Sequence record: MZ234025.1
From: Escherichia phage vB_EcoM-172859UKE1
Direction: 5' to 3' (one strand)
Length of the DNA: 64,000 nucleotides
Made by a program: the position numbers and the translations under genes. Below are positions 1-31,444 of this stretch, piece by piece. The notes below the pieces were generated by a model. That model was not told the DNA's origin and did not search any database. It saw only the letters and a program-made list of their open reading frames with translations. The stretch's first letter is position 1; every line of letters starts with the position of its first letter.

Positions 1-981
1 ATGTTCAACGTTCAAATCAAAAAAGGTATCTATCGTAATAACGAAATCTCTGGTTCTTATGTCGCCACAAAGACCTGGTTCCCAGCAAAGCTTAATCCTG
101 AATGTTCCCACTTAGGTGATGGTAAAATTTTCGTTATGATTGATGGTTCTGAACGTGGAGTATGGGTCTTCAAATCAGACATCGTAATGGAAGGAGTTGA
201 GACATCGCCGGTTGCAGTTGTTGAAAGCACTGAAGATATGAAAACTCGTATCAACAAACGCTTTAAAGTAATGAACATGATGACGAATGGCATTATCGAT
301 GGCAAAATTCGTTCACTCATTATTTCAGGTGCAGCCGGTATTGGTAAGACGTATTCTCTGGATAAAGCACTTAATAATGCTAATGATAATGGTTTCATCA
401 AATACAAAAGCATTAATGGTAAAATCTCTGGTATTGGCCTTTACGAACAACTTTGGCTCAACCGTGATGCAGACAGCGTTCTCTTAATCGACGACGTTGA
501 CGTATTCTCAGATATGGACATCTTGAACCTTCTTAAAGCAGCATTAGATACCGGAGATAAACGCAAAGTTTGTTGGAGCACTGCGTCATCTTATCTCGAG
601 GATAAGGGTATCGATAAAGAATTTGAGTTTGAAGGTACTATCGTTTTCATTACAAACGTTGATATCGATAAAGAGTTAGAACGTGGTTCGAAACTTGCTC
701 CACACCTTCAAGCTTTAGTATCTCGTTCAGTGTATCTCGACCTTGGAGTACACTCTAATGAAGAGATTATGGTTCGAGTTGAAGATGTAATATTATCTAC
801 TGACATGATGCAGAAACGTGGTCTGACGGATGCAGAAACGTATAAAGCATTGTCCTGGATGAAGGCTAACGTATCTCGTCTTCGCAATGTATCATTACGT
901 ACGGCTCTTTATGTAGCAGATTTTATTTCAACTGATAAAGATGGTTGGGAGGAAATCTCTGAAGTAACTTTACTGAAATAA
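1..981 (+). CDS. P-loop ATPase-like protein; ATG sits at the window edge so the true N-terminus may lie upstream
   Basis: 326-aa ORF with Walker A-like GAAGIGKT and Walker B-like LLIDDVD; lies upstream of nrdC in the nrdC.x-type hyperplastic region. Confidence 0.55.
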   Translation: MFNVQIKKGIYRNNEISGSYVATKTWFPAKLNPECSHLGDGKIFVMIDGSERGVWVFKSDIVMEGVETSPVAVVESTEDMKTRINKRFKVMNMMTNGIIDGKIRSLIISGAAGIGKTYSLDKALNNANDNGFIKYKSINGKISGIGLYEQLWLNRDADSVLLIDDVDVFSDMDILNLLKAALDTGDKRKVCWSTASSYLEDKGIDKEFEFEGTIVFITNVDIDKELERGSKLAPHLQALVSRSVYLDLGVHSNEEIMVRVEDVILSTDMMQKRGLTDAETYKALSWMKANVSRLRNVSLRTALYVADFISTDKDGWEEISEVTLLK

Positions 982-7131: not shown

Positions 7132-7605
7132 ATGTTATTATCAGGCGCAAAATATAAAGAAGAAAAACAAAAATTTTATGATGCACAGAATGGTAAGTGT
7201 CCTATTTGCCACCGTGAATTAGACCCTGATGTCCAAGGTAACCATCTTGACCACGACCACGAATTAAACGGGCCAAAAGCAGGTAGAGTTCGTGGGTTAC
7301 TCTGTAATCTGTGCAACGCAGCAGAAGGTCAAATGAAGCATAAGTTCAACCGTTCAGGTCTTAAAGGTCGTGATGTCGACTACCTAGAATGGCTTGAAGC
7401 TCTTCTTGCTTATTTGAAACAAGATTATTCTGATAATAATATCCATCCTAATTTTGTTCCGGACAAAACTAAAGAGTTCTCAAGACTAGGTAAAGAGGAA
7501 ATGATGGCCGAGATGCTTCAAAGAGGATTTGAATATAATGAATCTGATACTAAAACACAATTAATAGCTTCATTCAAAAAGCAGCTTAGAAAGAGTTTAA
7601 AATGA
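7132..7605 (+). CDS. 49: endonuclease VII (Holliday junction resolvase)
   Basis: 157 aa, same length as T4 gp49; zinc-binding CPICH...CNLCN motifs; adjacent to nrdD. Confidence 0.9.
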   Translation: MLLSGAKYKEEKQKFYDAQNGKCPICHRELDPDVQGNHLDHDHELNGPKAGRVRGLLCNLCNAAEGQMKHKFNRSGLKGRDVDYLEWLEALLAYLKQDYSDNNIHPNFVPDKTKEFSRLGKEEMMAEMLQRGFEYNESDTKTQLIASFKKQLRKSLK

Positions 7606-9419
7606 AAATTGAAAAAGAAATTGAAGGACTGATTCATAAAACTAATAAAGATCTTTTGAACGAGAATGCTAATAAAGATTCTCGTGTTTTTCCAACTCAA
7701 CGGGACCTTATGGCTGGTATTGTGTCTAAGCACATTGCCAAAAATATGGTCCCGTCTTTTATTATGAAAGCACATGAAAGCGGAATTATCCATTTCCATG
7801 ATATTGATTATTCTCCTGCTCTTCCATTTACTAATTGCTGTTTAGTAGATTTAAAAGGAATGCTTGAAAACGGATTTAAGCTTGGTAATGCACAGATTGA
7901 AACTCCTAAATCGATTGGTGTTGCTACTGCAATTATGGCACAAATTACTGCACAGGTTGCTTCACATCAGTACGGCGGAACGACTTTTGCTAATGTAGAT
8001 AAAGTACTTTCTCCTTATGTTAAACGCACCTATGCAAAACATATTGAGGATGCAGAAAAATGGCAAATCGCTGATGCGTTGAATTATGCCCAATCTAAAA
8101 CAGAAAAAGACGTATACGATGCATTCCAAGCGTATGAATACGAAGTAAATACTCTCTTTAGTTCAAACGGACAAACGCCTTTTGTAACAATTACATTTGG
8201 TACTGGAACCGACTGGACTGAACGAATTATTCAGAAGGCAATTCTTAAAAACCGCATTAAAGGCCTTGGTCGTGATGGAATAACTCCTATTTTCCCTAAA
8301 CTTGTTATGTTCGTTGAAGAGGGTGTCAATCTTTATAAAGACGACCCGAACTACGATATTAAGCAGCTTGCTCTAGAGTGTGCAAGCAAAAGAATGTATC
8401 CTGATATTATTTCAGTTAAGAACAATAAAGCTATCACTGGTTCATCTATTCCTGTTTCTCCAATGGGTTGTCGTAGTTTCTTGAGTGTATGGAAAGATTC
8501 GACTGGAAATGAAATTCTTGATGGACGTAATAATCTTGGTGTTGTAACACTGAATCTTCCTCGTATCGCATTAGATTCTTATATTGGAACACAATTTAAC
8601 GAACAGAAATTTGTTGAATTATTCAATGAACGAATGGACCTGTGTTTTGAAGCTTTGATGTGTAGAATTAGTTCTTTAAAGGGTGTTAAAGCAACTGTAG
8701 CTCCTATTCTTTACCAAGAAGGTGCATTCGGGGTTCGTCTTAAACCTGATGACGATATAATTGAGTTATTTAAAAACGGTAGAAGTTCAGTGTCCCTAGG
8801 ATACATTGGTATTCACGAATTGAATATTCTTGTCGGTCGTGATATTGGACAAGAAATTTTAACTAAAATGAATGCCCGTCTTAAACAGTGGACAGAAAGA
8901 ACCGGATTTGCTTTTAGTTTATATTCTACTCCTGCTGAAAACCTTTGTTATCGTTTCTGTAAACTCGATACTGAAAAATATGGAAGTGTAAAGGATGTTA
9001 CTGATAAAGGATGGTACACTAACAGTTTCCACGTTTCAGTAGAAGAAAATATCACTCCGTTTGAAAAGATTTCTCGTGAAGCACCGTATCATTTCATTGC
9101 GACGGGTGGTCACATTTCTTATGTTGAACTTCCAGATATGAAAAACAACCTAAAAGGACTTGAGGCTGTATGGGATTATGCTGCACAACATTTAGATTAT
9201 TTTGGTGTTAATATGCCAGTAGATAAATGTTTTACATGCGGAAGTACCCATGAAATGACTCCTACTGAAACCGGATTTGTTTGTTCTATTTGTGGAGAAA
9301 CTGACCCTAAAAAGATGAACACCATAAGAAGAACATGCGGTTATCTTGGAAATCCTAACGAACGCGGATTTAATCTCGGCAAAAATAAAGAAATCATGCA
9401 TAGGGTTAAACACCAATGA
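7602..9419 (+). CDS. nrdD: anaerobic ribonucleoside-triphosphate reductase
   Basis: 605 aa; C-terminal glycyl-radical region RRTCGYLG and Zn-ribbon CFTCG...CSICG; uninterrupted (no intron). Confidence 0.95.
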   Translation: MKIEKEIEGLIHKTNKDLLNENANKDSRVFPTQRDLMAGIVSKHIAKNMVPSFIMKAHESGIIHFHDIDYSPALPFTNCCLVDLKGMLENGFKLGNAQIETPKSIGVATAIMAQITAQVASHQYGGTTFANVDKVLSPYVKRTYAKHIEDAEKWQIADALNYAQSKTEKDVYDAFQAYEYEVNTLFSSNGQTPFVTITFGTGTDWTERIIQKAILKNRIKGLGRDGITPIFPKLVMFVEEGVNLYKDDPNYDIKQLALECASKRMYPDIISVKNNKAITGSSIPVSPMGCRSFLSVWKDSTGNEILDGRNNLGVVTLNLPRIALDSYIGTQFNEQKFVELFNERMDLCFEALMCRISSLKGVKATVAPILYQEGAFGVRLKPDDDIIELFKNGRSSVSLGYIGIHELNILVGRDIGQEILTKMNARLKQWTERTGFAFSLYSTPAENLCYRFCKLDTEKYGSVKDVTDKGWYTNSFHVSVEENITPFEKISREAPYHFIATGGHISYVELPDMKNNLKGLEAVWDYAAQHLDYFGVNMPVDKCFTCGSTHEMTPTETGFVCSICGETDPKKMNTIRRTCGYLGNPNERGFNLGKNKEIMHRVKHQ

Positions 9420-12426: not shown

Positions 12427-12759
12427 ATGTCTACTAAAATCAAAAACGTAGTTAATTCTTTCGCTTTCGATAAAGTTGTTGCTCTTCTGGAATCCGGCAA
12501 TATTGTTACTCCTCAAGTTCTTGACGCGTGGGAATTCCGTCTTTATGAAATCATGCAAAAACACGACCAGAAAATTGGACGTAATTCTATTCGCGAAATT
12601 CTAGTACAATATATTCTTTCTGAATTTGACGTTGCTGCATTTGGTGTTGAATCTAAAGCTTATCAGAAACATGAAATCTCTGAAAAAACTATCCGTCGTA
12701 TGAAAAATCAACGTAAGAAAAAATTCGCTGACTTGAAAATTGTTAAGGCGGTAAAATGA
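12427..12759 (+). CDS. hypothetical protein
   Basis: 110-aa ORF from ATG after GAGGAAAATAAT. Confidence 0.45.
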   Translation: MSTKIKNVVNSFAFDKVVALLESGNIVTPQVLDAWEFRLYEIMQKHDQKIGRNSIREILVQYILSEFDVAAFGVESKAYQKHEISEKTIRRMKNQRKKKFADLKIVKAVK

Positions 12760-12983
12760 GCGTATTAACAGAAACTTTGATTAATGACCTGCGTCTAGCT
12801 GGTTACGAAGTTGGTACAAATAGTTTAGGTCTTCCTCAGATTGAAGGTCCTGGATTTATTCTGGAATACGAATTCAAACAATGGTGGTTATATGCTACAG
12901 TTGACGATGCGTTGAATATTGATTTCGTTGACCAATTTGATTCATTGGATGCTGCTCTTGAAGCAGCAAAGGAACTAGAATGA
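12756..12983 (+). CDS. hypothetical acidic protein
   Basis: 75-aa ORF, ATGA-coupled. Confidence 0.45.
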   Translation: MSVLTETLINDLRLAGYEVGTNSLGLPQIEGPGFILEYEFKQWWLYATVDDALNIDFVDQFDSLDAALEAAKELE

Positions 12984-13249
12984 AACTATCTCGAATCGCT
13001 ATAACTGAAGAAAAGCTGGGCGAATTTTATGTTGACGAATACATGAAAGTCACGTATTTTCCATTCGTTAAAGGTGTCGGTTTTTGGGAAACTCATGTAT
13101 CTCAATTAAACGAAGGCGACTATAATGAAACACATGAGAACTTTTTAGATTTTCTTTATAATGCCGGTCTTACTGAGCTTTATATCGATATCCATGAGTT
13201 CAAACGTTTAATGGAAAAAGTGTTTCAGGCCTATTGTTTGCTCCGATAG
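12980..13249 (+). CDS. hypothetical protein
   Basis: 89-aa ORF, ATGA-coupled. Confidence 0.45.
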   Translation: MKLSRIAITEEKLGEFYVDEYMKVTYFPFVKGVGFWETHVSQLNEGDYNETHENFLDFLYNAGLTELYIDIHEFKRLMEKVFQAYCLLR

Positions 13250-13256
13250 TATCTCG

Positions 13257-13299
13257 TGCTTTAAGATAGGTCTCTAAATATTATGATATAATAGACCTA
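13257..13299 (+). promoter_or_regulatory. possible middle/early promoter region upstream of gene 55: MotA-box-like TGCTTTA plus inverted repeat TAGGTCT/AGACCTA around TATAAT
   Basis: TGCTTTA at 13257-13263; TATAAT 13287-13292 inside inverted repeat; spacing imperfect. Confidence 0.35.
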
Positions 13300-13321
13300 T
13301 GAATTGAGCCAAGAGGTACTT

Positions 13322-13879
13322 ATGACTGAACAAAAACCTAAAAATAACTATGTGAATAATAAAGAGCTTCTCGCCGCTATAATCGAGTGGAAAAAGGAGC
13401 TCTTAAATAATAAAGACCCAAACAAAATTATTCGTCAGAATGATACCATCGGTTTAGCAATTATGCTTATTGCCGAAGGCCTGTCCAAACGTTTCAACTT
13501 TTCAGGATATACCCAGTCTTGGAAGCAGGAGATGATTGCAGATGGGATTGAAGCCTCTATTAAGGGACTTCATAATTTCGACGAAACTAAGTACAATAAC
13601 CCACATGCATACATAACTCGAGCTTGTTTTAATGCTTTTGTCCAACGTATCAAAAAAGAACGTAAGGAAGTTGCAAAGAAATATAGTTACTTCGTTCATA
13701 ATGTCTACGACAGTCATGACGATGATATGGTAGCGTTAGTAGATGAAACGTTTATTCAAGACATCTACGATAAAATGACGCATTATGAAGAATCCGCTTA
13801 TAAAGCTCCTGGGGCTGAAAAGAAGGAAGTTGTTAGCGATTCGCCTAGTTTGGATTTTTTATATGAGGATGACAATTGA
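13322..13879 (+). CDS. 55: late-transcription sigma factor gp55
   Basis: 185 aa from ATG at 13322; ...[21 protein letters not shown]...[31 protein letters not shown]... near-identical to T4 gp55 as remembered. Confidence 0.9.
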
Positions 13880-14078
13880 CATCTCTAACTACTTAGAAGA
13901 ACCTTTTGACGAAGCAATCCCTTATTTGGTAAAACTGTTGGGTCGTGAATTTAAAATTAATTTTGACATCGACCCTTTGAACCCACACGACGTGTCATTT
14001 TCGATAAATGGGACTCCAGTTGAGTACGAGTTCTGTATTGAAGAGGATGGACGTTTTTATTTTAATTTAATGAGATAA
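13863..14078 (+). CDS. hypothetical protein
   Basis: 71-aa ORF overlapping the end of gene 55. Confidence 0.4.
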
Positions 14079-14079
14079 T

Positions 14080-14403
14080 ATGACTACCGAGATTATTGAA
14101 AATAAAGAAGCAGAAGATGCAGTAGCTAAAATGCTACAAGAAATCCAAAAGAAAAATGAAGCTGAAGCACGTAAAAAATCCGAAAAGATTCTTAAAAAGA
14201 ATCGTTTTGAACTAAACCGTCTTTATGCTCATGCTCAAGAAGCAGCAATTCAAAACAACTTCGAAGCTTACGAATATGCTATTAAGAAATCTCGGGATAT
14301 TCTACGACAACCATATAATGACAAGTTAATTAAAATCCAGTGGGTTACTACTCGTCAGGCTATTGAGGACATCATTAATGGCGCTAGTTCAAACAAAGTT
14401 TAA
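14080..14403 (+). CDS. hypothetical protein
   Basis: 107-aa ORF, Lys/Glu-rich. Confidence 0.45.
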   Translation: MTTEIIENKEAEDAVAKMLQEIQKKNEAEARKKSEKILKKNRFELNRLYAHAQEAAIQNNFEAYEYAIKKSRDILRQPYNDKLIKIQWVTTRQAIEDIINGASSNKV

Positions 14404-14584
14404 ACGTCTGAAGCTGAACGCAGGGTTCACCCTTAAATTAGGTGGTCCTCTTTGTGTTAAAATCTCTGAAAAGGAATATCACGACGGTTCTATTACAGAA
14501 ATTTGTCCACCTGTTGTAAAGGCAGACCCAAAACAACTCGTGTGGGTTGATTCATTTCAAGTTAAGAAATGGTGGAAACGATGA
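14378..14584 (+). CDS. hypothetical protein
   Basis: 68-aa ORF from first in-frame ATG (track ORF begins at a TTG). Confidence 0.35.
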   Translation: MALVQTKFKRLKLNAGFTLKLGGPLCVKISEKEYHDGSITEICPPVVKADPKQLVWVDSFQVKKWWKR

Positions 14585-14623
14585 GAGAAATCGATTTAGG
14601 TATTTTCTGAGAGGTGATTATGC

Positions 14624-14797
14624 ATGACGAACGACCCGACCTCTGAAAATTTCGATAAAATCCGTAAAGGCAAAGCAGAAAGAATGAGACGTTTTAAAGA
14701 GTCTTATGATAAAGCTAAAGCCGAAGGAACTATTACATACAAGCCCATTCGATTTAAAAGTTCAAATGAGCCTCTGTACGGTGTACTATGTGGATAG
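14624..14797 (+). CDS. hypothetical basic protein
   Basis: 57-aa ORF after GAGGTG RBS; ends at terminator hairpin. Confidence 0.4.
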   Translation: MTNDPTSENFDKIRKGKAERMRRFKESYDKAKAEGTITYKPIRFKSSNEPLYGVLCG

Positions 14798-14825
14798 GAA
14801 CTCTTCGGAGTTCCTTTTTTTTTTG
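14796..14825 (+). terminator. rho-independent terminator
   Basis: GGAACTC-ttcg-GAGTTCC hairpin followed by 10 T. Confidence 0.8.
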
Positions 14826-14847
14826 CTTTATAAACGGATGATAGAAT
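14821..14847 (+). promoter_or_regulatory. MotA-dependent middle promoter (MotA box TGCTTTA + -10 TAGAAT)
   Basis: TGCTTTA 14824-14830, 11-bp spacer, TAGAAT 14842-14847; upstream of gene 47. Confidence 0.6.
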
Positions 14848-14870
14848 GAATTAACTAATGAGGAAATAAT

Positions 14871-15890
14871 ATGAAAATTTTGCACTTAGGCGACTTCCAT
14901 ATCGGAGTCAAACAAGACGACCCATGGGTTCAAGATATTCAACGTGATGGTATTCGTCAAGCAATTGAATACTCTAAGAAACATGGGATTAAAACTTGGA
15001 TTCAGTACGGTGACTGGTTTGACGTCCGTAAAGCAATAACGCATCGTACAATGGAATTCAATCGTGAAATCGTTGATATGATTTCTAAAGCAGGCATTCA
15101 CGTTCATGTCACGATAGGAAACCATGACATGGCGTTTAAGAATACAATAACACCTAACACTGTTTCTGAATTGTTAACTCAATTTGAAAACTTTACTATT
15201 TACGAACATCCAACTACTGTAGATTTTGACGGATGTCTGATTGATATCGTTCCATGGATGTGTGAAGAAAATACGGGTGAAATCTTAGAGCACATCAAGA
15301 CTTCTTCTGCAGCGTATTGTGTTGGTCACTGGGAACTGAATGGCTTCTATTTCTATAAAGGAATGAAGTCTCATGGGCTTGAACCTGATTTCTTAAAGAC
15401 CTATAAACAAGTCTGGTCCGGCCACTTCCACACAATCTCTGAAGCTGCTAACGTCAAATATATTGGGACACCATGGACCCTTACTGCAGGCGATGAGAAC
15501 GACCCGCGCGGATTCTGGGTATTCGACACTGATGTTGAACGTATGGAATTTATTCCTAATGAAACAACATGGCATCGACGAATCACTTATCCGTTTAAAG
15601 GCAAAATCAATTATTCTGATTATACTAATCTAGCCGTACGTGTTATAGTATCAGAAATTGATTCAGAGTTGACTAAGTTTGAATCTGAACTTGAAAAAGT
15701 AGTTCACTCTCTTCGTATGGTTTCTAAAGTTGATAACAGTGTTGAATCTGATGACGACCAGGAAATCGAGATTAAATCACTTCAAGATATCATTAAAGAA
15801 TATATTGACGCGATTCCAGATATCTCAGACGAAGACAGAGAAGCGCTGGTCAAATATTCCAACGAACTTTATATTGAGGCAACACAATGA
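14871..15890 (+). CDS. 47: recombination endonuclease subunit gp47 (Mre11-like)
   Basis: 339 aa; calcineurin-like phosphoesterase motifs LHLGDFH and GNHD. Confidence 0.9.
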   Translation: MKILHLGDFHIGVKQDDPWVQDIQRDGIRQAIEYSKKHGIKTWIQYGDWFDVRKAITHRTMEFNREIVDMISKAGIHVHVTIGNHDMAFKNTITPNTVSELLTQFENFTIYEHPTTVDFDGCLIDIVPWMCEENTGEILEHIKTSSAAYCVGHWELNGFYFYKGMKSHGLEPDFLKTYKQVWSGHFHTISEAANVKYIGTPWTLTAGDENDPRGFWVFDTDVERMEFIPNETTWHRRITYPFKGKINYSDYTNLAVRVIVSEIDSELTKFESELEKVVHSLRMVSKVDNSVESDDDQEIEIKSLQDIIKEYIDAIPDISDEDREALVKYSNELYIEATQ

Positions 15891-16144
15891 CTTTAGATGA
15901 ATTTAACAATGCTGGACTCAGGCTTGAAGTTGAAATGGACGTTAAAGATGATGATGGATTCGAGAACACTATCAAGTATTGGATTGAGCCATTACGCGTT
16001 GAAGGCAATGAAGTTAAAGCAGTTCATGTCTGCACCGACTGGGCTATTGAATTTAGCTTTAATATAATGGACAACGATACTCCTGGCTCTATTCTTAAAA
16101 TGACTGAAGCATGTATCAAGGATGCGTATAATGACGAAGACTGA
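15887..16144 (+). CDS. hypothetical protein
   Basis: 85-aa acidic ORF, ATGA-coupled to gene 47. Confidence 0.45.
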   Translation: MTLDEFNNAGLRLEVEMDVKDDDGFENTIKYWIEPLRVEGNEVKAVHVCTDWAIEFSFNIMDNDTPGSILKMTEACIKDAYNDED

Positions 16145-16991
16145 TTATGAAACTCAAATTTATAAAATTCTTAAAACCTCCTTCCCTTCGTGGGAAGGAC
16201 TTGATGAGTATTTAAATTTTATAAAAACTAATTCCACTAATAAAGTAAAAGGACTGACTCAGGTTCACCATATACTACCAAAATCTATTTTTCCAGATTT
16301 TAAAACATGTAAATGGAACTTGTGTCATTTAAGTCATTATAACCATTTTATTGCACATAGCATTTTGGCAAAAACTGGCAACCACAAGATGATTAACGCG
16401 CTTCAAAGAATGTATACCGGGCGATTTAATTTAAATTGTACAACGCATGAACTAAATAATATAGCCGAGGCGTATTCTTTAGAATTCGAAAATGTTTGTA
16501 AAGTTAATTCTATAAAAATGACATTATACTATTCCAATCAGGATAATAGAATTAAGATTAGTCAAGCTTTAAAAGCATGGTTTAAAAATCCGGAAAATTT
16601 AAAGAAACACAGAATTATGACAAGTTCAAAGGAATTTAAAGAAACCGTCTCTATTATGACCCAAAAGTGGTTCAGTGACCCTATTAATAAACAAAAACAT
16701 TTGGATGCTTGTCGTAAAATATCTAAAACAGCCGAATATAGAGAATCATTATCGGCTGGAGTTTCACGCAGTTGGAAAAATCCTAAAGTTAGAGACACTC
16801 ATTTGAAATCTAGAAGAAAAGGATATCATTGGGAAAATTTTGATATGCTTTACGTTGAATGGGTTAAAATGAACAAACCTAAATATGTGACTTTTTCTAA
16901 AAATTTAGTCAATTTAGGATATCCTATACAAAGTTCTTTACAGGCTTTAGTTTCTGAATTCATGAGGAAAAATTTAAGTGAAAACATTTAA
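16131..16991 (+). mobile_element. free-standing HNH homing endonuclease gene between genes 47 and 46
   Basis: HNH-like motif VHHILPKS...CKWNLCHLSHYNHFIAH; T4 has no such gene between 47 and 46 as far as I recall; 3' end overlaps the gene 46 start. Confidence 0.65.
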
Positions 16992-18666
16992 ATTAAATCG
17001 TGTTCGTTATAAAAATATAATGTCTGTTGGGCAAAATTTTATCGATATCCAATTAGATAAAGTCCAAAAGACCTTAATCACAGGTAAAAATGGCGGTGGT
17101 AAATCTACGATGTTAGAAGCCATTACTTTCGGACTTTTCGGTAAACCATTTCGTGACGTTAAGAAAGGACAAATCATTAATAGCACGAACAAGAAAGAGC
17201 TCTTAGTCGAGCTTTGGATGGAATTCGATGATAAAAAATACTTCATTAGACGTGGCCAAAAGCCCAATATTTTCGAAATCTCCGTTGACGGTGTTCGTCT
17301 TGATGAATCTGCCAGCAGTCGTGACTTCCAAGAAGAATTTGAACGTAGCATCGGAATGTCATACGCGTCTTTTAAACAAATCGTTGTGCTTGGGACGGCA
17401 GGGTATACCCCTTTCATGGCTCTTAGCACCCCTGCTCGTAGAAAACTTGTCGAAGACCTTTTAGAAGTCGGCACACTCGCTGAAATGGATAAAATCAATA
17501 AGTCTCAAGTTCGAGAACTTAATTCCCAGGGACAAGTTCTCGATGCCAAGAAAGATGGTATTATCCAACAAATTAAGATTTATAACGAGAATATCGAACG
17601 TCAAAAGAAATTATCTGGTGATAATGTAGCGCGTCTACAGAATATGTATGACGACCTAGCCAAAGAAGCTCGTTCATTAAAAGCAGAAATCGAAGAAGCT
17701 AATGAGCGACTACTTAATATCGTTCTTGATGAAGACCCTACTGAGGCATTCAATAAGATAGGACAAGAAGCATTCTTGATTAAATCTAAAATTGACTCAT
17801 ATAACAAAGTTATTAAGATGTATCATGACGGTGGCACATGTCCTACTTGTGCATCACAGTTGCACCAGGGTGATCCTATTGTCTCTAAGATTACCGATAA
17901 GCTTCATGAATGTAATAACTCATTCGAGCAACTTACCTGTCACAGAGATAATCTGAGTGTCCTAGTGGACGAATATAGAGCTAATGTTAAGACTAAACAG
18001 GACCTTGCATCTGATATTCGTACCAAGAAACAAGCAATGATTGCCACTATTGATAAAGCTAAGAAAGTTAAAGCTGCAATAGAACAAGCCTCGGCGGAAT
18101 TTATCGACCATGCCGATGAGATAGCTTTGCTTCAAAAAGAACTTGATAAAATCATTAAAACAAAATCGGATATCGTTCTTGAAAAATACCATCGTGGTAT
18201 TATCACAGATATGTTAAAAGATTCTGGTATTAAAGGTGCTATCATTAAAAAATATGTGCCTCTGTTCAACAAGCAGATTAACCATTATCTTAAAATCATG
18301 GAAGCCGATTACGTGTTTTCTATTGATGAAGAATTCAATGAATCTATAAAATCACGTGGCCGTGAAGATTTTAGTTATGCTTCATTTAGTCAAGGTGAAA
18401 AGGCACGTATCGATATCGCATTGTTGTTTACATGGCGAGATATTGCTGAAAAGGTCTCTGGTGTTAAAATCAACACTCTGATTCTTGATGAGGTTTTTGA
18501 TGGGGCAGTTGATTCTGAAGCTGTTAAGGCTATAGATACCATTCTTGGAAGTTTACAAAATACTAACGTGTTCATTATTTCTCATAGGGACCATGACCCT
18601 CAACGTTATGGACAACATTTGCAAATGAGCAAAGTTGGACGATTTACTGTAATGACTGTTTCATAA
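16978..18666 (+). CDS. 46: recombination endonuclease subunit gp46 (Rad50/SbcC-like ATPase), GTG start
   Basis: Walker A GKNGGGKST, Zn-hook-like CPTC, C-terminal LILDEVFDG; first codon is GTG at 16978. Confidence 0.9.
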   Translation: MKTFKLNRVRYKNIMSVGQNFIDIQLDKVQKTLITGKNGGGKSTMLEAITFGLFGKPFRDVKKGQIINSTNKKELLVELWMEFDDKKYFIRRGQKPNIFEISVDGVRLDESASSRDFQEEFERSIGMSYASFKQIVVLGTAGYTPFMALSTPARRKLVEDLLEVGTLAEMDKINKSQVRELNSQGQVLDAKKDGIIQQIKIYNENIERQKKLSGDNVARLQNMYDDLAKEARSLKAEIEEANERLLNIVLDEDPTEAFNKIGQEAFLIKSKIDSYNKVIKMYHDGGTCPTCASQLHQGDPIVSKITDKLHECNNSFEQLTCHRDNLSVLVDEYRANVKTKQDLASDIRTKKQAMIATIDKAKKVKAAIEQASAEFIDHADEIALLQKELDKIIKTKSDIVLEKYHRGIITDMLKDSGIKGAIIKKYVPLFNKQINHYLKIMEADYVFSIDEEFNESIKSRGREDFSYASFSQGEKARIDIALLFTWRDIAEKVSGVKINTLILDEVFDGAVDSEAVKAIDTILGSLQNTNVFIISHRDHDPQRYGQHLQMSKVGRFTVMTVS

Positions 18667-22122: not shown

Positions 22123-24834
22123 ATGAAAGAATTTTACTTAACGGTTGAACAGATTGGTGATTCAATTTTTGAACGTTACATCGATTCTAATGGCCGTGAA
22201 CGTACTCGTGAAGTAGAATATAAACCATCACTGTTTGCTCATTGTCCAGAAAGTCAGGCTACGAAATATTTCGATATCTACGGTAAGCCGTGTACTCGTA
22301 AGTTGTTCGCTAATATGCGTGATGCCTCCCAATGGATTAAACGCATGGAAGATATCGGACTTGAAGCACTTGGCATGGACGATTTCAAATTGGCGTATTT
22401 GTCTGACACTTATAACTATGAAATCAAATACGACCATACAAAAATTCGTGTGGCTAACTTCGACATCGAAGTAACATCTCCGGATGGGTTCCCTGAGCCG
22501 TCACAAGCAAAACATCCTATTGATGCTATCACCCATTATGACTCAATTGACGACAGGTTCTACGTATTTGATCTATTGAATTCTCCATATGGTAATGTAG
22601 AAGAATGGTCTATTGAAATCGCTGCTAAGCTTCAAGAACAAGGTGGTGATGAAGTTCCATCTGAAATTATCGATAAAATCATTTATATGCCGTTCGATAA
22701 CGAAAAAGAATTGTTGATGGAATATCTCAACTTCTGGCAACAGAAAACTCCTGTCATTTTGACTGGATGGAACGTTGAGTCATTTGATATTCCATATGTG
22801 TATAACCGAATCAAGAATATTTTTGGCGAATCTACTGCGAAACGTTTATCACCACATCGTAAAACTCGTGTTAAAGTTATCGAAAACATGTATGGTTCTC
22901 GTGAAATCATTACATTGTTCGGTATCTCTGTTCTTGATTACATTGACCTTTACAAAAAATTCTCTTTTACCAATCAACCGTCGTATTCTCTGGATTACAT
23001 TTCAGAATTTGAATTGAACGTTGGTAAACTGAAATATGACGGCCCTATTTCTAAGCTTCGTGAAAGCAATCACCAACGATATATTTCTTATAACATTATC
23101 GATGTGTATCGTGTATTGCAAATTGATGCTAAGCGTCAGTTCATCAACTTGAGCTTGGACATGGGTTATTATGCTAAGATACAGATTCAATCTGTGTTTA
23201 GCCCAATTAAAACATGGGATGCTATTATTTTTAATAGCCTTAAAGAACAAAACAAGGTGATTCCACAAGGTCGTTCGCATCCAGTTCAACCTTACCCGGG
23301 TGCTTTTGTTAAGGAACCTATTCCAAATCGATACAAATATGTGATGAGCTTCGACCTCACATCTCTGTATCCAAGCATCATTCGCCAAGTGAATATTAGC
23401 CCGGAAACAATAGCAGGAACGTTTAAAGTAGCTCCACTGCATGATTATATTAACGCAATCGCTGAACGTCCTTCAGATGTGTACAGTTGCTCTCCTAACG
23501 GCATGATGTATTATAAAGACCGTGATGGTGTAGTTCCAACTGAAATCACTAAAGTCTTTAATCAACGTAAAGAACATAAAGGTTATATGCTTGCGGCTCA
23601 ACGTAATGGTGAAATAATTAAAGAGGCATTGCATAATCCTAATCTTTCTGTTGACGAACCATTAGATGTTGATTATCGTTTCGACTTCAGTGATGAGATT
23701 AAAGAAAAGATTAAAAAGTTGTCCGCTAAGTCTCTTAATGAAATGTTGTTTAGAGCTCAACGTACTGAAGTTGCAGGTATGACTGCACAGATTAACCGTA
23801 AATTGCTCATCAACTCACTTTATGGTGCACTTGGCAACGTTTGGTTCCGTTATTATGATTTGCGTAATGCTACTGCAATCACAACATTCGGGCAAATGGC
23901 TTTACAGTGGATTGAACGTAAAGTTAATGAATACCTGAATGAAGTTTGTGGTACAGAAGGTGAAGCTTTCGTTCTTTATGGTGATACAGACTCCATTTAC
24001 GTATCTGCGGATAAAATTATTGATAAGGTTGGTGAATCTAAATTCCGTGATACTAACCATTGGGTAGACTTCTTAGATAAGTTTGCACGTGAACGTATGG
24101 AACCAGCTATTGATAGAGGTTTCCGTGAAATGTGTGAATACATGAACAATAAACAACACTTAATGTTCATGGACCGAGAAGCTATCGCTGGTCCTCCGCT
24201 TGGTTCTAAAGGTATTGGCGGATTTTGGACTGGTAAGAAACGTTATGCATTAAACGTGTGGGATATGGAAGGTACTCGTTACGCTGAGCCTAAACTCAAA
24301 ATCATGGGTCTAGAGACTCAGAAATCTTCGACTCCTAAAGCAGTACAGAAAGCTCTTAAAGAATGTATTCGTCGTATGCTTCAAGAAGGTGAAGAATCAT
24401 TACAAGAATATTTTAAAGAGTTTGAAAAAGAATTCCGTCAATTGAATTATATTAGCATCGCGTCGGTATCTTCTGCGAATAACATTGCTAAATATGACGT
24501 CGGTGGATTCCCTGGTCCCAAATGCCCGTTCCATATTCGTGGAATTCTGACGTATAACCGAGCTATCAAAGGTAATATTGATGCACCACAAGTTGTAGAA
24601 GGTGAAAAAGTATATGTTCTGCCTTTACGTGAAGGAAACCCATTCGGTGATAAATGTATCGCATGGCCTTCTGGTACTGAAATCACAGATTTAATTAAAG
24701 ACGATGTACTTCATTGGATGGACTACACTGTTCTCCTTGAGAAGACATTTATTAAACCACTTGAAGGATTCACATCAGCAGCTAAACTCGATTACGAGAA
24801 GAAAGCATCTCTGTTCGATATGTTTGATTTTTGA
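22123..24834 (+). CDS. 43: DNA polymerase gp43 (family B)
   Basis: 903 aa; exonuclease FDIE, polymerase motifs SLYPS and YGDTDS. Confidence 0.97.
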   Translation: MKEFYLTVEQIGDSIFERYIDSNGRERTREVEYKPSLFAHCPESQATKYFDIYGKPCTRKLFANMRDASQWIKRMEDIGLEALGMDDFKLAYLSDTYNYEIKYDHTKIRVANFDIEVTSPDGFPEPSQAKHPIDAITHYDSIDDRFYVFDLLNSPYGNVEEWSIEIAAKLQEQGGDEVPSEIIDKIIYMPFDNEKELLMEYLNFWQQKTPVILTGWNVESFDIPYVYNRIKNIFGESTAKRLSPHRKTRVKVIENMYGSREIITLFGISVLDYIDLYKKFSFTNQPSYSLDYISEFELNVGKLKYDGPISKLRESNHQRYISYNIIDVYRVLQIDAKRQFINLSLDMGYYAKIQIQSVFSPIKTWDAIIFNSLKEQNKVIPQGRSHPVQPYPGAFVKEPIPNRYKYVMSFDLTSLYPSIIRQVNISPETIAGTFKVAPLHDYINAIAERPSDVYSCSPNGMMYYKDRDGVVPTEITKVFNQRKEHKGYMLAAQRNGEIIKEALHNPNLSVDEPLDVDYRFDFSDEIKEKIKKLSAKSLNEMLFRAQRTEVAGMTAQINRKLLINSLYGALGNVWFRYYDLRNATAITTFGQMALQWIERKVNEYLNEVCGTEGEAFVLYGDTDSIYVSADKIIDKVGESKFRDTNHWVDFLDKFARERMEPAIDRGFREMCEYMNNKQHLMFMDREAIAGPPLGSKGIGGFWTGKKRYALNVWDMEGTRYAEPKLKIMGLETQKSSTPKAVQKALKECIRRMLQEGEESLQEYFKEFEKEFRQLNYISIASVSSANNIAKYDVGGFPGPKCPFHIRGILTYNRAIKGNIDAPQVVEGEKVYVLPLREGNPFGDKCIAWPSGTEITDLIKDDVLHWMDYTVLLEKTFIKPLEGFTSAAKLDYEKKASLFDMFDF

Positions 24835-24874
24835 TATAATGCCAAGGACGGCCAACTAATTAAATGAGAGAAAT

Positions 24875-25510
24875 ATGAAAACTACTCCTATTACTATCGC
24901 TATTGACGCAATCGTAAAACAAGCTTCATCTCTTGCCACTATGGCTAAAGTAATTAGTCAAAACCCTGCTCGTTATAATGCTATTCTAGAAACTCTTCGA
25001 CGCCCTGGACTTAGTAATTATGAAAGCCGGGTAATTATTACAGGTGTTGGTAAGAATGCTAATATCGCAACTAAAGCTTCCGAGACTTTTGCTTCACTAG
25101 GTATTCCTAGCATGTATTTGAATACCGGGCATTATTCTCATGGTGACGCAGGATTTATTGCACCTAATGATGTATTAGTTCACATCAGTCGTTCTGGTAA
25201 GACTGAAGAAATGATAGGTGTTGCTAAACATCTTCGTATGATTCGTCCTCAGGTTAAACAGATTCTGTTACATTGTAACCCTGACATTCCACAAGAATAC
25301 GAAGCTCTTTTTGATTATACGTTCTGTACCGGTATCGCGGTAGAAGTTGACGAGAACTCTTTAGCTCCGACAATGTCCACTACATTGTTGTTAGCGCTTA
25401 TCGATACGTTCGCTATCAACCTTTCGTCTGAACGTGGATTTACCTCTAATGATTTCCTTAAGTTCCATCCAGGCGGTGCACTAGGTGCCATGTTACGAGG
25501 CGAACAATGA
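24875..25510 (+). CDS. SIS-domain sugar-phosphate isomerase (KdsD/GutQ-like arabinose-5-phosphate isomerase-like)
   Basis: 211 aa; ...TGVGKNANIATKASETFASLGIPS..., YSHGDAGF, ISRSGKTEE and C-terminal HPGGALG resemble SIS domain of A5P isomerases. Confidence 0.75.
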   Translation: MKTTPITIAIDAIVKQASSLATMAKVISQNPARYNAILETLRRPGLSNYESRVIITGVGKNANIATKASETFASLGIPSMYLNTGHYSHGDAGFIAPNDVLVHISRSGKTEEMIGVAKHLRMIRPQVKQILLHCNPDIPQEYEALFDYTFCTGIAVEVDENSLAPTMSTTLLLALIDTFAINLSSERGFTSNDFLKFHPGGALGAMLRGEQ

Positions 25511-25650
25511 AAGCAATAACAATAGGACTTTTACTATTGATGCTTGTCATGACTATCTACTGGAGCTTAACGGCTCCGGTAATGATTCCAACACTTGTAA
25601 TTGGATGGATTATGATTGGACTACAAGCAAAGTATGAATGCTTTAACTAG
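25507..25650 (+). CDS. possible small hydrophobic peptide
   Basis: 47-aa ORF with two hydrophobic stretches, ATGA-coupled. Confidence 0.3.
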   Translation: MKAITIGLLLLMLVMTIYWSLTAPVMIPTLVIGWIMIGLQAKYECFN

Positions 25651-25691
25651 AATAGTGTACAATACTCCTACTTACCAATGAGGACTTCAAC

Positions 25692-27377
25692 ATGAAAAAA
25701 GCTGTTATTCTTGGTGCTGGATTGGCAACTCGTTTATATCCAATAACGCATCATATTCCTAAGGTGCTTGTTAACTATAAACAAGACACTATTCTGAGCA
25801 ATTTGTATACAATTTATTCTGACCTTGGCGCAGATGAAATTATTGTAGTAGTTCATTCAAAATTTGCTGAAACTGTTCGAGCTTATTGTGAGCAAGAAGG
25901 GTTCAATGTGACTATTCGTACAGTTGATGAAGCGTATGGTTCTGCTTATGCTCTTGCTAAATTACACAAAGATTTAGACGGCCATAATGTAATTGTTAAC
26001 TGGTGTGATATTATTCCTGATTTTGGTTCATGGTCTTGGAATGTTAACGCAATCTATGTTAAGGGTGACGAATGTCGATATAATTTCGACGGTGAAAATA
26101 TCACTAACGTAGGTTCAACAGGTGGTAATGTTGTAGGAATTTATCAGTTCAAAGACTGGGAATTCTATATGGGTTCTACCGATGAGGAAATTCATGAATA
26201 CTGCAAAGGACGTGATTTCGTAGAATTCCTTTACAGCGGCGCATTCAATAAATCAGAGCTTATGAATATCATCGACCTTGGTGATATGCCTAAACTTGAA
26301 AAGGCCCATGAAGTTCGTGAACTGAACCGTAGTTTTAATGCAGTTGAAATTGGCGAAGAAACTGTAACTAAATTCGCATTAACCGAACAGGGTCGAGCTC
26401 TTCAGAAAGATGAGATTTCGTGGTATTTGAAAGTGAAATCAGATTCAGTTCCTCAGTTAGTTTCTGTTAATGAAAATAACTTTGAAATGGAACGCATTAA
26501 AGGTAAGCCGGCATTTGAATATATTAAATCAAAATCAAGTCTTGCTCGTCCACAAATTGTTGATGCAATTTTAGATGCACTGAAATTCAGCACAGACACT
26601 TATTTTGTAAGTCCTGAAACTGTTCGTCGTGATTTCACTAAAGAATTCTATACGAAAGTTATTGATCGTTGTGAAAGCATTCAACCATTGATTGATTCAT
26701 TTGGTAAAATCACACACGTGAACTACACTAAGATTGGACGTCTGAAGCCAATGCTGAAACAAGCTTTAGAACACCTTATTCGTTATCATAACCGTTCTCA
26801 GGGACAGTACTCTGTTATTCATGGTGACCCGAACTTCAGTAATACTATGATTACTGATAACGGCGAAGTCAAGTTTATCGACCCTCGTGGATATTTTGGT
26901 GAAACCAAGATTTACGGGCCAAAATTGTATGATGAAGCTAAAGTGCTTTATGCTGTTTCAGGTTATGATGAATTCAATGCTAATCCGACCTGGGGGCAGT
27001 TTACTATTGATGAAACAACTTGTAATGTGACTATTAACATCAATCCATTAGTTTACAAATATGGAAAGATGAGTTCGTTTAACGAGTATCATCATTTGGC
27101 AGTGGCAATTATCTGGATTGCATTAGGTGGTTATTTCAAGAATAATCCACTTAAAGCGGTAGCCGCATATTATAAAGGTATGGAACTTCTGACTAAGCAA
27201 TTACGTAACATGGGCCGTGTACTTCAAGACGGCTCTATTAGTTATGACGTAGCAGAACCTGTAACGGCTACTCTGATTACAAAAAATCCTGGTAAATGGG
27301 TACTAACTGATAAAGAAACTGGTGTTTCCTATCGTCCAATCGGTGGCGATATCACTCATCAATGGGAACGAATCTAA
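25692..27377 (+). CDS. bifunctional sugar-1-phosphate nucleotidyltransferase / kinase-like protein
   Basis: N-terminal AVILGAGLATRLYPIT (NTP-transferase G-x-G-x-R); C-terminal HGDPNFSN and IDPRG resemble APH/anomeric sugar kinase catalytic motifs. Confidence 0.7.
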   Translation: MKKAVILGAGLATRLYPITHHIPKVLVNYKQDTILSNLYTIYSDLGADEIIVVVHSKFAETVRAYCEQEGFNVTIRTVDEAYGSAYALAKLHKDLDGHNVIVNWCDIIPDFGSWSWNVNAIYVKGDECRYNFDGENITNVGSTGGNVVGIYQFKDWEFYMGSTDEEIHEYCKGRDFVEFLYSGAFNKSELMNIIDLGDMPKLEKAHEVRELNRSFNAVEIGEETVTKFALTEQGRALQKDEISWYLKVKSDSVPQLVSVNENNFEMERIKGKPAFEYIKSKSSLARPQIVDAILDALKFSTDTYFVSPETVRRDFTKEFYTKVIDRCESIQPLIDSFGKITHVNYTKIGRLKPMLKQALEHLIRYHNRSQGQYSVIHGDPNFSNTMITDNGEVKFIDPRGYFGETKIYGPKLYDEAKVLYAVSGYDEFNANPTWGQFTIDETTCNVTININPLVYKYGKMSSFNEYHHLAVAIIWIALGGYFKNNPLKAVAAYYKGMELLTKQLRNMGRVLQDGSISYDVAEPVTATLITKNPGKWVLTDKETGVSYRPIGGDITHQWERI

Positions 27378-27763
27378 TGCACCGTGTAGAAAACATGCTT
27401 AATCTTTGTTTTGATGTCGATGATTGTATAACAGAGTGGAATAACAATCGTGATTACGTGAACTTCAAACCAGACGTCGAAATGGTGTCTGCCATTAATG
27501 CTCTGTATGATGCAGGGCATACCATAACGCTTTACACTGCTCGCGGTATGAAGTCAGTAGGTCCTGGACGTATAGCAATTGACATTCTCCCAAGTCTGAT
27601 TCAGAACTTGGCAAACATTGGCTTGAAGTACCATAATTTGCTAACACATAAACCAGTATATGATTGGATTATCGACGACAAAGCTATGCGTCCTGACGAA
27701 TTCAAAGCTCTTATGAATAAAGGCGAATTCGAAACATTTAAACCATATAAACCGAATCTATAA
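27377..27763 (+). CDS. HAD-superfamily phosphatase
   Basis: FDVDDCIT (DxDxT motif I) near N-terminus; ~128 aa, size of KdsC/GmhB-type phosphatases; TAATG coupling. Confidence 0.7.
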   Translation: MHRVENMLNLCFDVDDCITEWNNNRDYVNFKPDVEMVSAINALYDAGHTITLYTARGMKSVGPGRIAIDILPSLIQNLANIGLKYHNLLTHKPVYDWIIDDKAMRPDEFKALMNKGEFETFKPYKPNL

Positions 27764-27820
27764 TAATTTAAGTAAGACATGCAAAAACCATCGCATCAAT
27801 TAACGCGAGACGCAAAATAA

Positions 27821-28981: not shown

Positions 28982-29061
28982 TTTCTAGAAAAACTTTTAA
29001 CCACCAACTTAATGAAGAGATTTTGACTATGAAACTGAACACTAATGACCAAATTCTTAAA

Positions 29062-29083
29062 CAGGCCCATCAGGGCCTGTTTG
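29062..29083 (+). terminator. GC-rich stem-loop (possible terminator) at the 3' edge of the sugar module
   Basis: CAGGCCC-atca-GGGCCTG perfect 7-bp stem followed by TTT. Confidence 0.35.
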
Positions 29084-29241: not shown

Positions 29242-29260
29242 AAATTGTATTGAGGTAAAC

Positions 29261-30876: not shown

Positions 30877-30877
30877 A

Positions 30878-31426: not shown

Positions 31427-31444
31427 GAGCCATTTAAAGTTTTA

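Follow-up and report, generated by a model that had tools for sequence, protein, structure and literature searches.

An arabinosylation gene set and an empty α-glucosyltransferase slot in a 64-kb stretch of a Mosigvirus genome

RB69 and other members of the genus Mosigvirus contain mono- and di-arabinosylated 5-hydroxycytosine in their DNA, and not glucosyl-hydroxymethylcytosine (PMC6024577, PMC13326640, PMC13390438). Arabinosylated 5-hydroxycytosine is described for RB69 itself (PMC13326640), and mono- and di-arabinosyl deoxycytidine for the DNA of the Mosigvirus NicPhage (PMC13390438). The chemistry is thus already published: the identification of the sugar dates from 2018, and that of the base, the pathway and the structures from 2025-2026. 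The arabinose system would follow the same logic as that of T4, in that dCMP is modified before replication and sugars are then added. Unlike in T4, however, the sugar is arabinose, ether-joined at C5. Among the RB69 enzymes, gp48 has been shown to have 5-hydroxy-dCMP synthase activity, and an isomerase role for gp55 (Table 1 of that study) and a phosphatase role for gp51 have been assigned (PMC13326640). The kinase and nucleotidyltransferase role of gp52:53 has been described as well (PMC6024577, PMC13326640). In vitro, the first arabosyl transfer has yet to be reconstituted with any of them (PMC13326640, section 26).

We analyzed 64 kb of DNA of Escherichia phage vB_EcoM-172859UKE1 (the window), which is part of a Mosigvirus genome, i.e. 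of an RB69-like T-even phage of the Tevenvirinae. Overall, the window shares 94-99% identity with Mosigvirus genomes, and it is colinear with SQ17 over its whole length (94-98% identity). Over positions 12500-17500, 142 records show 95-99% nucleotide identity, and 119 records cover at least 80% of the stretch; the identity to SQ17 is 98.6%. Positions 24800-31600 are 98.8% identical to APCEc01 and 98.5% identical to NicPhage. SQ17, mar005P1 and RB69 are all classified as Mosigvirus in their records. With T4 the window shares the backbone synteny from nrdC to rIIA, the dCTPase gene 56 and the small genes a-gt.2 to a-gt.5.

The initial annotation had singled out three loci at which this DNA departs from T4: a-gt, dam and imm. 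All three arrangements are also found in RB69 (NC_004928), which has the same empty a-gt slot, the same dam-less gap between genes 61 and 56 and the same order imm.1-imm-sp, and they are thus already known from that public record. The three claims concern gene content, to which a chance expectation is not applicable. The differences between the window and RB69 are strain-level only. The split ORFs 46/47 and 52/53 of RB69 are single ORFs in the window, as the published papers expect, a Mob-type homing endonuclease takes the place of 46.1, and 61.4 is absent from the window.

In T4, the segment between genes 47 and 55 carries mobB, a-gt and 47.1, in agreement with the position that the initial annotation had given for a-gt. 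In the window, the segment is bounded by gene 55 (13322-13879, plus strand), a late sigma factor 91% identical to T4 gp55 (tblastn span 13322-13867) whose counterparts in SQ17, mar005P1 and RB69 are annotated as RNA polymerase sigma factor, and by gene 47 (14871-15890, plus strand), an SbcD-like nuclease subunit 76% identical to T4 gp47 over its full length (tblastn match to 15887). Between them lie only four small ORFs of 57-107 amino acids, as initially described, all on the plus strand and none of the size of a-gt. The first is an a-gt.5 homologue at 13863-14078 (71 amino acids from 13863, 69 from 13869), which is 47% identical to T4 and 100% identical to RB69p070 and falls into Pfam DUF5491 (E = 5.8e-13) and phrog_1169. 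It is followed by homologues of a-gt.4 (14080-14403; 107 amino acids; 58% to T4, 100% to RB69p069; Pfam DUF2654, E = 1e-27), a-gt.3 (14378-14584; 68 amino acids; 69% to T4, 98.5% to RB69p068; phrog_1648) and a-gt.2 (14624-14797; 57 amino acids; 76% to T4, 96.5% to RB69p067; Pfam DUF5486, E = 4.5e-28). The 5' end of the a-gt.5 homologue overlaps the end of gene 55, and the a-gt.3 homologue overlaps the end of a-gt.4; T4 has both overlaps too. The order 55, a-gt.5, a-gt.4, a-gt.3, a-gt.2, 47 is that of RB69.

Judged by sequence comparison, the four small ORFs are orthologues of T4 a-gt.5 to a-gt.2. They are neither replacements for a-gt nor novel content, because all four also occur in T4, in an identical arrangement. 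Compared with T4, the window lacks the 2.3-kb block of mobB, a-gt and 47.1. Despite their names, a-gt.2 to a-gt.5 matched only DUF and PHROG families in the Pfam and PHROG searches, with no sign of a link to DNA modification. Moreover, scanning all 64 kb against Rfam with the gathering thresholds returned nothing, and thus no known structured RNA in the interval between genes 55 and 47.

We then looked for the glucosyltransferases and for Dam. The proxies for the complete genome were SQ17 (166,457 bp) and RB69 (167,560 bp). No tblastn match with E < 0.01 was obtained in the window, SQ17 or RB69 with T4 a-gt, b-gt and Dam or with RB27 ba-gt, which is of the T2/T6 type. The best E-values for T4 a-gt were 0.012 in the window, 0.088 in SQ17 and 0.013 in RB69; in the same three sequences, those for b-gt were at least 3 and those for ba-gt at least 0.048. 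The a-gt match in the window (127-366, E = 0.012) was considered as a hidden glycosyltransferase and rejected. It lies in a homologue of NrdC.10, of which T4 has its own copy, and which has weak Pfam matches, below the cut-offs, to AAA-type ATPases; we take the a-gt match to be a chance one.

The window covers 64 kb of a genome of roughly 167-170 kb, and absence outside it was judged on SQ17 and RB69. Moreover, accessory genes of T-even phages do shuffle, as imm illustrates. Nevertheless, it is very improbable that glucosyltransferase and dam genes are encoded outside the window and that the chemistry is T4-like after all. The initial annotation had proposed to look for a-gt, b-gt and dam elsewhere in the genome, and the whole-genome tblastn searches of the two complete relatives, which included ba-gt, recovered none of them at E < 0.01; the attempted refutation thus fails. 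A published BlastP analysis of RB69 by Thomas et al. agrees in reporting the same absence of T4 genes (PMC6024577, section 3.2). Finally, the product encoded at the position of gene 42 is a 5-hydroxy-dCMP synthase only 25% identical to T4 gp42, and therefore the hydroxymethyl acceptor for glucosylation would not be made.

The RB69 genes linked to arabinosylation that map inside the window all have copies there, at 24875-31426 and 51446-52546, with 96-100% protein identity and in the same gene order as in the RB69/Mosigvirus system, to which the Afh genes of phage HY126 belong. The partner dNMP kinase, RB69 gp159, maps outside the window. All the genes described in the following are on the plus strand. 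The first gene after the DNA polymerase, where T4 has imm.1 and imm, encodes an arabinose-5-phosphate isomerase-like SIS protein (24875-25510; RB69 gp55; Pfam SIS, E = 8e-10; 96.7% to RB69p055). Next is a single ORF of 561 amino acids (25692-27377) for a bifunctional sugar kinase/nucleotidyltransferase, corresponding to RB69 gp52:53 and similar to HY126 AfhE, with a Pfam NTP_transferase match (E = 8e-10), kinase-like matches below the cut-offs and 98-99.7% identity to RB69p053/p052. It is followed by a HAD-like sugar phosphatase similar to HY126 AfhF (27377-27763; RB69 gp51; 98.4% to RB69p051; phrog_1238) and by a U32-peptidase-like protein (27821-28981; RB69 gp50; Pfam Peptidase_U32, E = 7e-11; 99.5% to RB69p050).

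The position of T4 gene 42 is occupied by the thymidylate-synthase homologue, the predicted 5-hydroxy-dCMP synthase (29261-29977; RB69 gp48; 99.2% to RB69p048), which matches PDB entries 9iqc, 9ir2 and 9iqu with E = 8e-161; thymidylate synthase is also recognized by Pfam in this cluster. The adjoining gene (29977-30876; RB69 gp46:47; 99-100% to RB69p047/p046), located where T4 has b-gt, encodes a putative arabinosyltransferase of 299 amino acids. Its AlphaFold model has a pLDDT of 95.1, and the top Foldseek match of the model is the GT-B enzyme MshA (3c4q, E = 4.5e-6); other GT-B enzymes and the HY126 glycosyltransferase 9ir0 were also matched. The protein thus models as a glycosyltransferase of the GT-B fold. 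The cluster ends with a thymidylate-kinase-like nucleotide kinase (30878-31426; RB69 gp45; 99.5% to RB69p045; phrog_761, thymidylate kinase). A second putative arabinosyltransferase, of 366 amino acids, is encoded between gene 39 and rIIA.1 (51446-52546; RB69 ORF003c; 96.4% to RB69p003) and matches PDB entries 9iqz and 9ir0 with E = 7.5e-247, the title of 9ir0 being 'phage HY126 glycosyltransferase with UDP'. Neither transferase had a Pfam match, and the 299-amino-acid protein also had none in the PDB sequence search. Solved HY126 structures match two of the window proteins almost perfectly.

Very probably, then, the window belongs to a Mosigvirus genome that has an arabinosyl-5-hydroxycytosine system, no glucosyltransferases, an empty a-gt slot and, separately, a dam polymorphism. 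Gene content, homologies, the predicted fold of the 299-amino-acid protein and the absences in the window and two complete relatives are computed here, and the chemistry and enzyme activities are from the literature. The gene set suggests that 172859UKE1 itself makes arabinosyl-5-hydroxycytosine. In the proposed pathway, the thymidylate-synthase homologue would hydroxylate dCMP to 5-hydroxy-dCMP. The isomerase, the kinase/uridylyltransferase and the phosphatase (24875-25510, 25692-27377 and 27377-27763) would provide UDP-arabinose. The two predicted GT-B glycosyltransferases (29977-30876 and 51446-52546) would add the first and then the second arabinose to 5-hydroxycytosine. Glucosyltransferases as in T4 would here lack both their acceptor, hydroxymethylcytosine, and a function, and none is present. 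The slots of b-gt and imm are occupied by arabinosylation genes, with imm.1 and imm located beside sp. The initial annotation had read the remodelled loci as consistent with a different DNA modification chemistry. This conclusion is right, and it is established experimentally for the genus, but the dam and imm parts of the evidence do not bear on the chemistry.

The dam slot is indeed without a Dam-sized ORF, as had been stated. From the end of gene 61 at 39011 to the start of gene 56 at 39279 or 39294 there is a 267-bp gap, which contains a single ORF of 65 amino acids on the opposite strand (39011-39205, minus strand). This membrane ORF, 'dam.1' or RB69 ORF029w, is 97% identical to RB69p029w and 52% identical to RB27 dam.1 (phrog_2024), and in RB69, too, the gap between genes 61 and 56 has no other ORF. 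It is also present in T4, yet absent from the CDS list of NC_000866. The best tblastn E-value for T4 Dam was 0.29 in the window, and at least 0.16 across the window, SQ17 and RB69. A 29.5%-identical dam-like match in the 169-kb phage fDHCT2 raised the possibility of a divergent Mosigvirus dam, which was rejected. The DNA of fDHCT2 is 67-81% identical to that of RB69 and SQ17, which places it in another genus, its dam lies between nrdA and the next ORF, and a gene of this type was found neither in the window nor in RB69 or SQ17 (best E at least 2).

The imm gene likewise lies near gene 61, and not between genes 43 and 42 as in T4, which bears out the initial description. Flanked by dmd and sp (36318-36608), imm.1 and imm precede gene 61 by about 1.7 kb. 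The imm.1 homologue (35576-35944, plus strand; Pfam DUF5481) is 33% identical to T4 Imm.1 and 99% identical to RB69p037. The superinfection immunity gene imm (36006-36254, plus strand), directly upstream of sp, shares 64% identity with T4 Imm and 99% with RB69p036, and its product matches Pfam Imm_superinfect with E = 1.9e-15 (56.9 bits versus a cut-off of 27.9). The stretch from gene 43 to the gene 42 homologue contains no copy of imm.

In Mosigvirus, the three differences are found together, and the T4 imm slot contains the first arabinosylation gene, beside a retained 42.1 homologue. It could therefore be argued that the lack of dam and the displacement of imm are functional consequences of the arabinose chemistry, but we regard this as quite unlikely. 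The absence of dam is not evidence for the chemistry, because the glucosylating Tequatrovirus RB27, which has a-gt and ba-gt, also lacks dam at this slot and keeps only dam.1 between genes 61 and 56. Moreover, T4-type dam (at least 90% identity) occurs in 182 phage records, about a third as many as a-gt (502), and the cited literature does not tie Imm function to DNA modification. Presence or absence of dam is a polymorphism that is common among T-even phages and separate from the chemistry. The move of imm is a trait of the genus, and its sole visible tie to the chemistry is that the T4 slot is filled by the first arabinosylation gene.

How a-gt came to be absent can be approached from the slot itself. 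The 73 bp between a-gt.2 and gene 47, where mobB, a-gt and 47.1 are located in T4, contain one terminator-like hairpin and one middle-promoter-like unit (together 14796-14849, plus strand), predicted by terminator scan, RNA folding, junction alignment and a scan for MotA-type patterns. The hairpin at 14796-14825 found by the terminator scan resembles an intrinsic terminator (AGGAACTC-TTCG-GAGTTCCT, then a T run) and folds as RNA with -12 kcal/mol (z = -3.3). A MotA-box-like TTGCTTTA lies at about 14823-14830, with TAGAAT 11 nt downstream, and the spacer also holds a Shine-Dalgarno sequence. A scan for sigma-70 promoters over 13200-15200 found 8, with 6.7 expected in shuffles, and thus no enrichment. 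Composite terminator-promoter motifs of this kind, termed PeSL and PmSL, have been proposed to mediate the shuffling of modules among the genomes of T4-like phages (Arbiol 2010, PMC2839356; Comeau 2014, PMC4122927). By its sequence, the predicted unit is a candidate PmSL, with the order stem-loop, Mot-box (TGCTT) and -10-like box, and with a position at the edge of a variable gene.

In T4, RB27 and the Jiaodavirus Mineola, a hairpin and a GCTTTAT-type unit flank a-gt on both sides, the downstream unit of Mineola reading TGCTATTCA. Thus, two PmSL-like copies surround a-gt in these phages, versus one at the empty site of the window. This single copy, in the window as in RB69, resembles the a-gt.2 side in its left part and the gene 47 side in its right part, and the junctions of RB69 and the window differ only in how many T residues follow the hairpin. 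The junction alignments match at 30 of 36 and 21 of 23 positions, a similarity that spans a few tens of bases. Units were located with a regular expression, which replaced a search with the fixed spacing TTCGG N14 GCTTTA; the latter gave no match, as the spacing varies.

One unit at this slot versus two around a-gt elsewhere suggests the loss of a cassette. The repeated terminator-promoter units flanking a-gt would have recombined with each other, and the Mosigvirus lineage would thereby have lost the gene. We tentatively put forward that the unit at 14796-14849 may be a recombination scar of the switch from glucose to arabinose, and that T-even modification genes may be exchanged as promoter-bounded cassettes via short repeats. 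Convergence, instead of recombination, is also a possible explanation of the junction similarity, because hairpin-promoter units occur elsewhere in the window, e.g. at 49539. The dam slot, too, shares a GCTTTATAAA core with the a-gt-slot unit (at about 39237).

Alternatively, the ancestor may have had no a-gt at this slot, with Tequatrovirus and Jiaodavirus each having gained it and Mosigvirus retaining the ancestral empty site. Terminator-promoter units have been proposed to mediate insertion as well as deletion (PMC2839356, PMC4122927), and the homing endonuclease gene mobB adjoins a-gt in T4, marking a mobile neighbourhood. We nevertheless consider such independent gains rather unlikely. 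In Mineola, a-gt occupies exactly the same slot as in T4 and RB27, and its divergence from T4 a-gt (66% identity) is similar to that of the flanking genes 46, 47 and 55 (67-77%). The flanking genes of the window are nearer to T4 (76-91%) than those of Mineola are, and therefore one loss is more parsimonious than two gains, in a comparison that comprises three genera and three flanking genes only.

The gap is clean, and a-gt is dispensable in T4, so that one might also envisage that a single isolate of a glucosylating T-even phage had recently undergone a deletion or been misassembled. This is extremely improbable, however. The same junction is present in RB69, and the interval is common to more than 100 independent records with 95-99% identity. 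Moreover, the spacer ahead of gene 47 comes with a hairpin, a promoter-like unit and a Shine-Dalgarno sequence of its own, and the window encodes a full alternative modification pathway.

For annotation, the window can thus be recorded as that of a Mosigvirus with a complete arabinosyl-5-hydroxycytosine gene set. Such a gene set predicts resistance to many restriction enzymes, and also sensitivity to some modification-dependent defences, e.g. the GmrSD-family BrxU (PMC13390438). Finally, the a-gt junction provides a small illustration of a possible gain or loss of modification genes as cassettes.

T4 proteins (NC_000866) were placed on the window by tblastn. In the orientation opposite to the T4 reference record, it spans nrdC.10 to rIIA and continues past the point where the record ends join, as far as the t holin gene. 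In megablast searches of the phage collection, positions 12500-17500 match Escherichia phage vB_EcoM_SQ17 over their full length at 98.6% identity and 142 records, every one of them RB69-like, at 95-99%; the taxonomy of the inspected records is Straboviridae; Tevenvirinae; Mosigvirus. SQ17 is colinear with the entire 64-kb window at 94-98% identity.

The initial annotation had reported only four small ORFs, and no alpha-glucosyltransferase gene (a-gt), between genes 55 and 47. tblastn and ORF mapping bear this out: between gene 55 (13322-13867, +; 91% identical to T4) and gene 47 (14871-15887, +; 76%) there are exactly four + strand ORFs. They are homologues of T4 a-gt.5 (13863 or 13869 to 14078, +), a-gt.4 (14080-14403, +), a-gt.3 (14378-14584, +) and a-gt.2 (14624-14797, +), with 47-76% identity to the T4 proteins and 96-100% to RB69p070 to p067, and belong to families of unassigned function (DUF5491, DUF2654, DUF5486 and PHROGs without annotation). 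Since T4 also has these four genes in unchanged order, the true difference is the absent mobB, a-gt and 47.1 block (T4 36444-38679), in whose place the window has a 73-bp spacer.

The other two arrangements had also been described correctly. From the end of gene 61 (39011) to the start of gene 56 (39279 or 39294) there is no Dam-sized ORF, the sole ORF being one of 65 aa on the opposite strand (39011-39205, -). Its product is small and hydrophobic, and the ORF, named dam.1 in RB27 and ORF029w in RB69, runs antisense to its neighbours and is conserved in the interval from gene 61 to dam/56. T4 also carries it intact (interval NC_000866 17626-17934), and the CDS list of that record omits it there. 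Mapping of T4 proteins and Pfam place imm.1 (35576-35944) and imm (36006-36254; Imm_superinfect, E = 1.9e-15) between dmd and sp, near gene 61, rather than in the interval from 43 to the gene 42 homologue. T4 a-gt, beta-glucosyltransferase (b-gt) and Dam, together with the T2/T6-type beta-alpha-glucosyltransferase (ba-gt) of RB27, were then used as queries against the window and, locally, the complete SQ17 and RB69 genomes; none gave a match with E < 0.01 in any of the three. The same BlastP outcome has been reported for RB69 (Thomas et al.; PMC6024577, section 3.2). The best a-gt match (E = 0.012, 28% identity) aligns residues 211-295 with the NrdC.10 homologue (window 127-366, +). We rejected it as a chance match, because all that Pfam gives for this protein are weak matches to AAA-type ATPases, below the cut-offs, and because nrdC.10 is present in T4 too. 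The divergent dam of phage fDHCT2, from another genus, has no counterpart in the window, RB69 or SQ17. As RB69 shows all three arrangements, they are genus traits, visible in its public record NC_004928.

Between DNA polymerase (22123-24834) and uvsX (31525-32697), where imm.1, imm, 42, b-gt and segA lie in T4, the window carries a replaced module, whose genes we assigned by identity to RB69 proteins. It encodes, all on the + strand, a SIS-domain isomerase (24875-25510; RB69 gp55), a 561-aa nucleotidyltransferase/kinase (25692-27377; gp52:53), a 128-aa phosphatase-like protein (27377-27763; gp51), a U32-like protein (27821-28981; gp50), a thymidylate-synthase homologue that shares just 25% identity with T4 gp42 (29261-29977; gp48), a 299-aa protein (29977-30876; gp46:47) and a thymidylate-kinase-like protein (30878-31426; gp45). 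Gene 39 and rIIA.1 flank the gene for a 366-aa protein (51446-52546, +; gp3). All these products are 96-100% identical to their RB69 counterparts. The 299-aa and 561-aa proteins are single unbroken ORFs, split in the RB69 record into 46/47 and 52/53; this agrees with published statements that these splits are sequencing errors.

The literature ties the genes of this module and that of the 366-aa protein to cytosine arabinosylation. RB69 DNA contains arabinose, and the study concerned proposed that ORF003c and the 43-uvsX module account for it (PMC6024577). The modified base is 5-hydroxycytosine with one or two ether-linked arabinoses; RB69 gp48 was shown to make 5-hydroxy-dCMP, and the sugar-activation steps were established with the phage HY126 proteins AfhE and AfhF (PMC13326640, sections 24-27 for the latter). 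Mono- and di-arabinosyl deoxycytidine occur in Mosigvirus NicPhage (PMC13390438), which is 98.5% identical to the window over the arabinosylation cluster. The synthase matches structures 9iqc/9ir2/9iqu (E = 8e-161) and the 366-aa protein 9iqz/9ir0 (E = 7.5e-247), both nearly identically; 9ir0 is titled 'phage HY126 glycosyltransferase with UDP'. The 299-aa protein has no match in Pfam or in a PDB sequence search, and we therefore aligned 49 homologues and predicted its structure (mean pLDDT 95.1). Foldseek with this model recovers GT-B glycosyltransferases (top MshA 3c4q, E = 4.5e-6; the HY126 glycosyltransferase is also listed), which places the predicted fold among the GT-B enzymes and reproduces the published assignment.

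A different modification chemistry had been proposed from all three loci, and they differ in what they contribute. The absence of a-gt and b-gt does bear on the chemistry: hydroxymethylcytosine, on which both enzymes act, is not produced, and of their two slots one is empty and the other taken over by the arabinosylation cluster. The missing Dam does not, because the Tequatrovirus RB27 has a-gt and ba-gt yet only the antisense dam.1 between 61 and 56, with a junction sequence like that of the window, and because Dam at least 90% identical to that of T4 occurs in 182 records of the phage collection, versus 502 for a-gt. For imm there is one visible tie: the isomerase gene fills the Tequatrovirus place of imm.1 and imm, directly upstream of a retained 42.1 homologue (25507-25650, +), which thus shows where the former imm-42 boundary lay. 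This tie may be causal or coincidental. The 42.1 homologue, a 47-aa membrane-peptide ORF kept inside the arabinosylation cluster just after the isomerase gene, is 52% identical to RB27 42.1, located there between imm and 42, and 100% identical to the short RB69p054 ORF.

The spacer at the a-gt slot (14798-14870) contains a hairpin, AGGAACTC-TTCG-GAGTTCCT (-12 kcal/mol, z = -3.3), followed by a T run, TTGCTTTA, TAGAAT 11 nt on, GAGGAAA and the ATG of gene 47. This fits a predicted terminator followed by a MotA-type middle promoter, read against the T4 consensus quoted in PMC4122927. T4 has two similar units flanking a-gt, one after a-gt.2 (GGAGC-TTCG-GCTCC ... TTGCTTTATAAA ... TAAAAT) and one after a-gt (GGGC-TTCG-GCCC ... 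AGCTTTATA ... TATAAT), and paired units likewise flank a-gt in RB27 and Jiaodavirus Mineola. The left part of the single window unit matches the a-gt.2-side unit at 30 of 36 positions and its right part the a-gt-downstream unit at 21 of 23. Recombination between the two flanking units would leave one such hybrid unit, and from these short matches we infer that the window unit may be its product. The window has three copies of the decamer GCTTTATAAA (14825, 39237 and 45164, all on the coding + strand; 0.36 expected). The first two coincide exactly with the empty a-gt and dam slots, and the third lies upstream of dexA, close to where dda ends. A further hairpin plus Mot-box unit, GGGCTTCGGCCC TTTTTGCTTTAGATTTCGGATGATAGAAT (49500-49570, +), lies just upstream of gene 39 and is very like the T4 unit downstream of a-gt. 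According to published proposals, composite terminator-promoter motifs (PeSL and PmSL) mediate modular shuffling in T4-like phages (PMC2839356, PMC4122927), and the a-gt slot would be a further example of this known kind.

Loss of a-gt in the Mosigvirus line has to be weighed against separate gains at the slot. Mineola carries a-gt in the same slot as T4, its a-gt is 66% identical to that of T4, similar to the flanking 55, 47 and 46 (77, 71 and 67%), and the window's 55, 47 and 46 resemble those of T4 more closely (91, 76 and 83%) than those of Mineola (77, 67 and 65%). For these three taxa, a single loss is more parsimonious than two gains, although sampling this thin does not settle it.

Several indels relative to close relatives are strain-level. 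nrdD (7602-9419) is intact and is interrupted by a GIY-YIG endonuclease in SQ17; at 51392-51397 the window is without the HNH gene that SQ17 carries between gene 39 and the 366-aa glycosyltransferase; a homologue of RB69 ORF041c (34572-34946) is missing from SQ17; and 61.4, present in RB69, is absent from the window (35501-35576) and SQ17. A 289-aa Mob-type HNH homing endonuclease ORF (16122-16991, +; phrog_655) stands in the place of RB69 and T4 46.1, for which the window has no match, and overlaps both the end of 46.2 and the beginning of gene 46. Among the closest Mosigvirus records, only about nine have this ORF; most of the others lack it and so cover just 83% of the query. Gene 39 (49586-51403, +) is one 605-aa ORF, matching the RB69 annotation; the RB69 record remarks that the T4 gene is split into 39 and 60. 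The window has no separate gene 60, hence no site at which a translational bypass element of the T4 type could lie, and it also lacks counterparts of T4 60.1 and mobA.

Both the initial observation and its main inference, a modification chemistry different from that of T4, are thus correct. The arrangement of a-gt, dam and imm, together with the arabinose chemistry, is a well-characterised trait of RB69-like phages, and the finding is therefore already known and of low interest.
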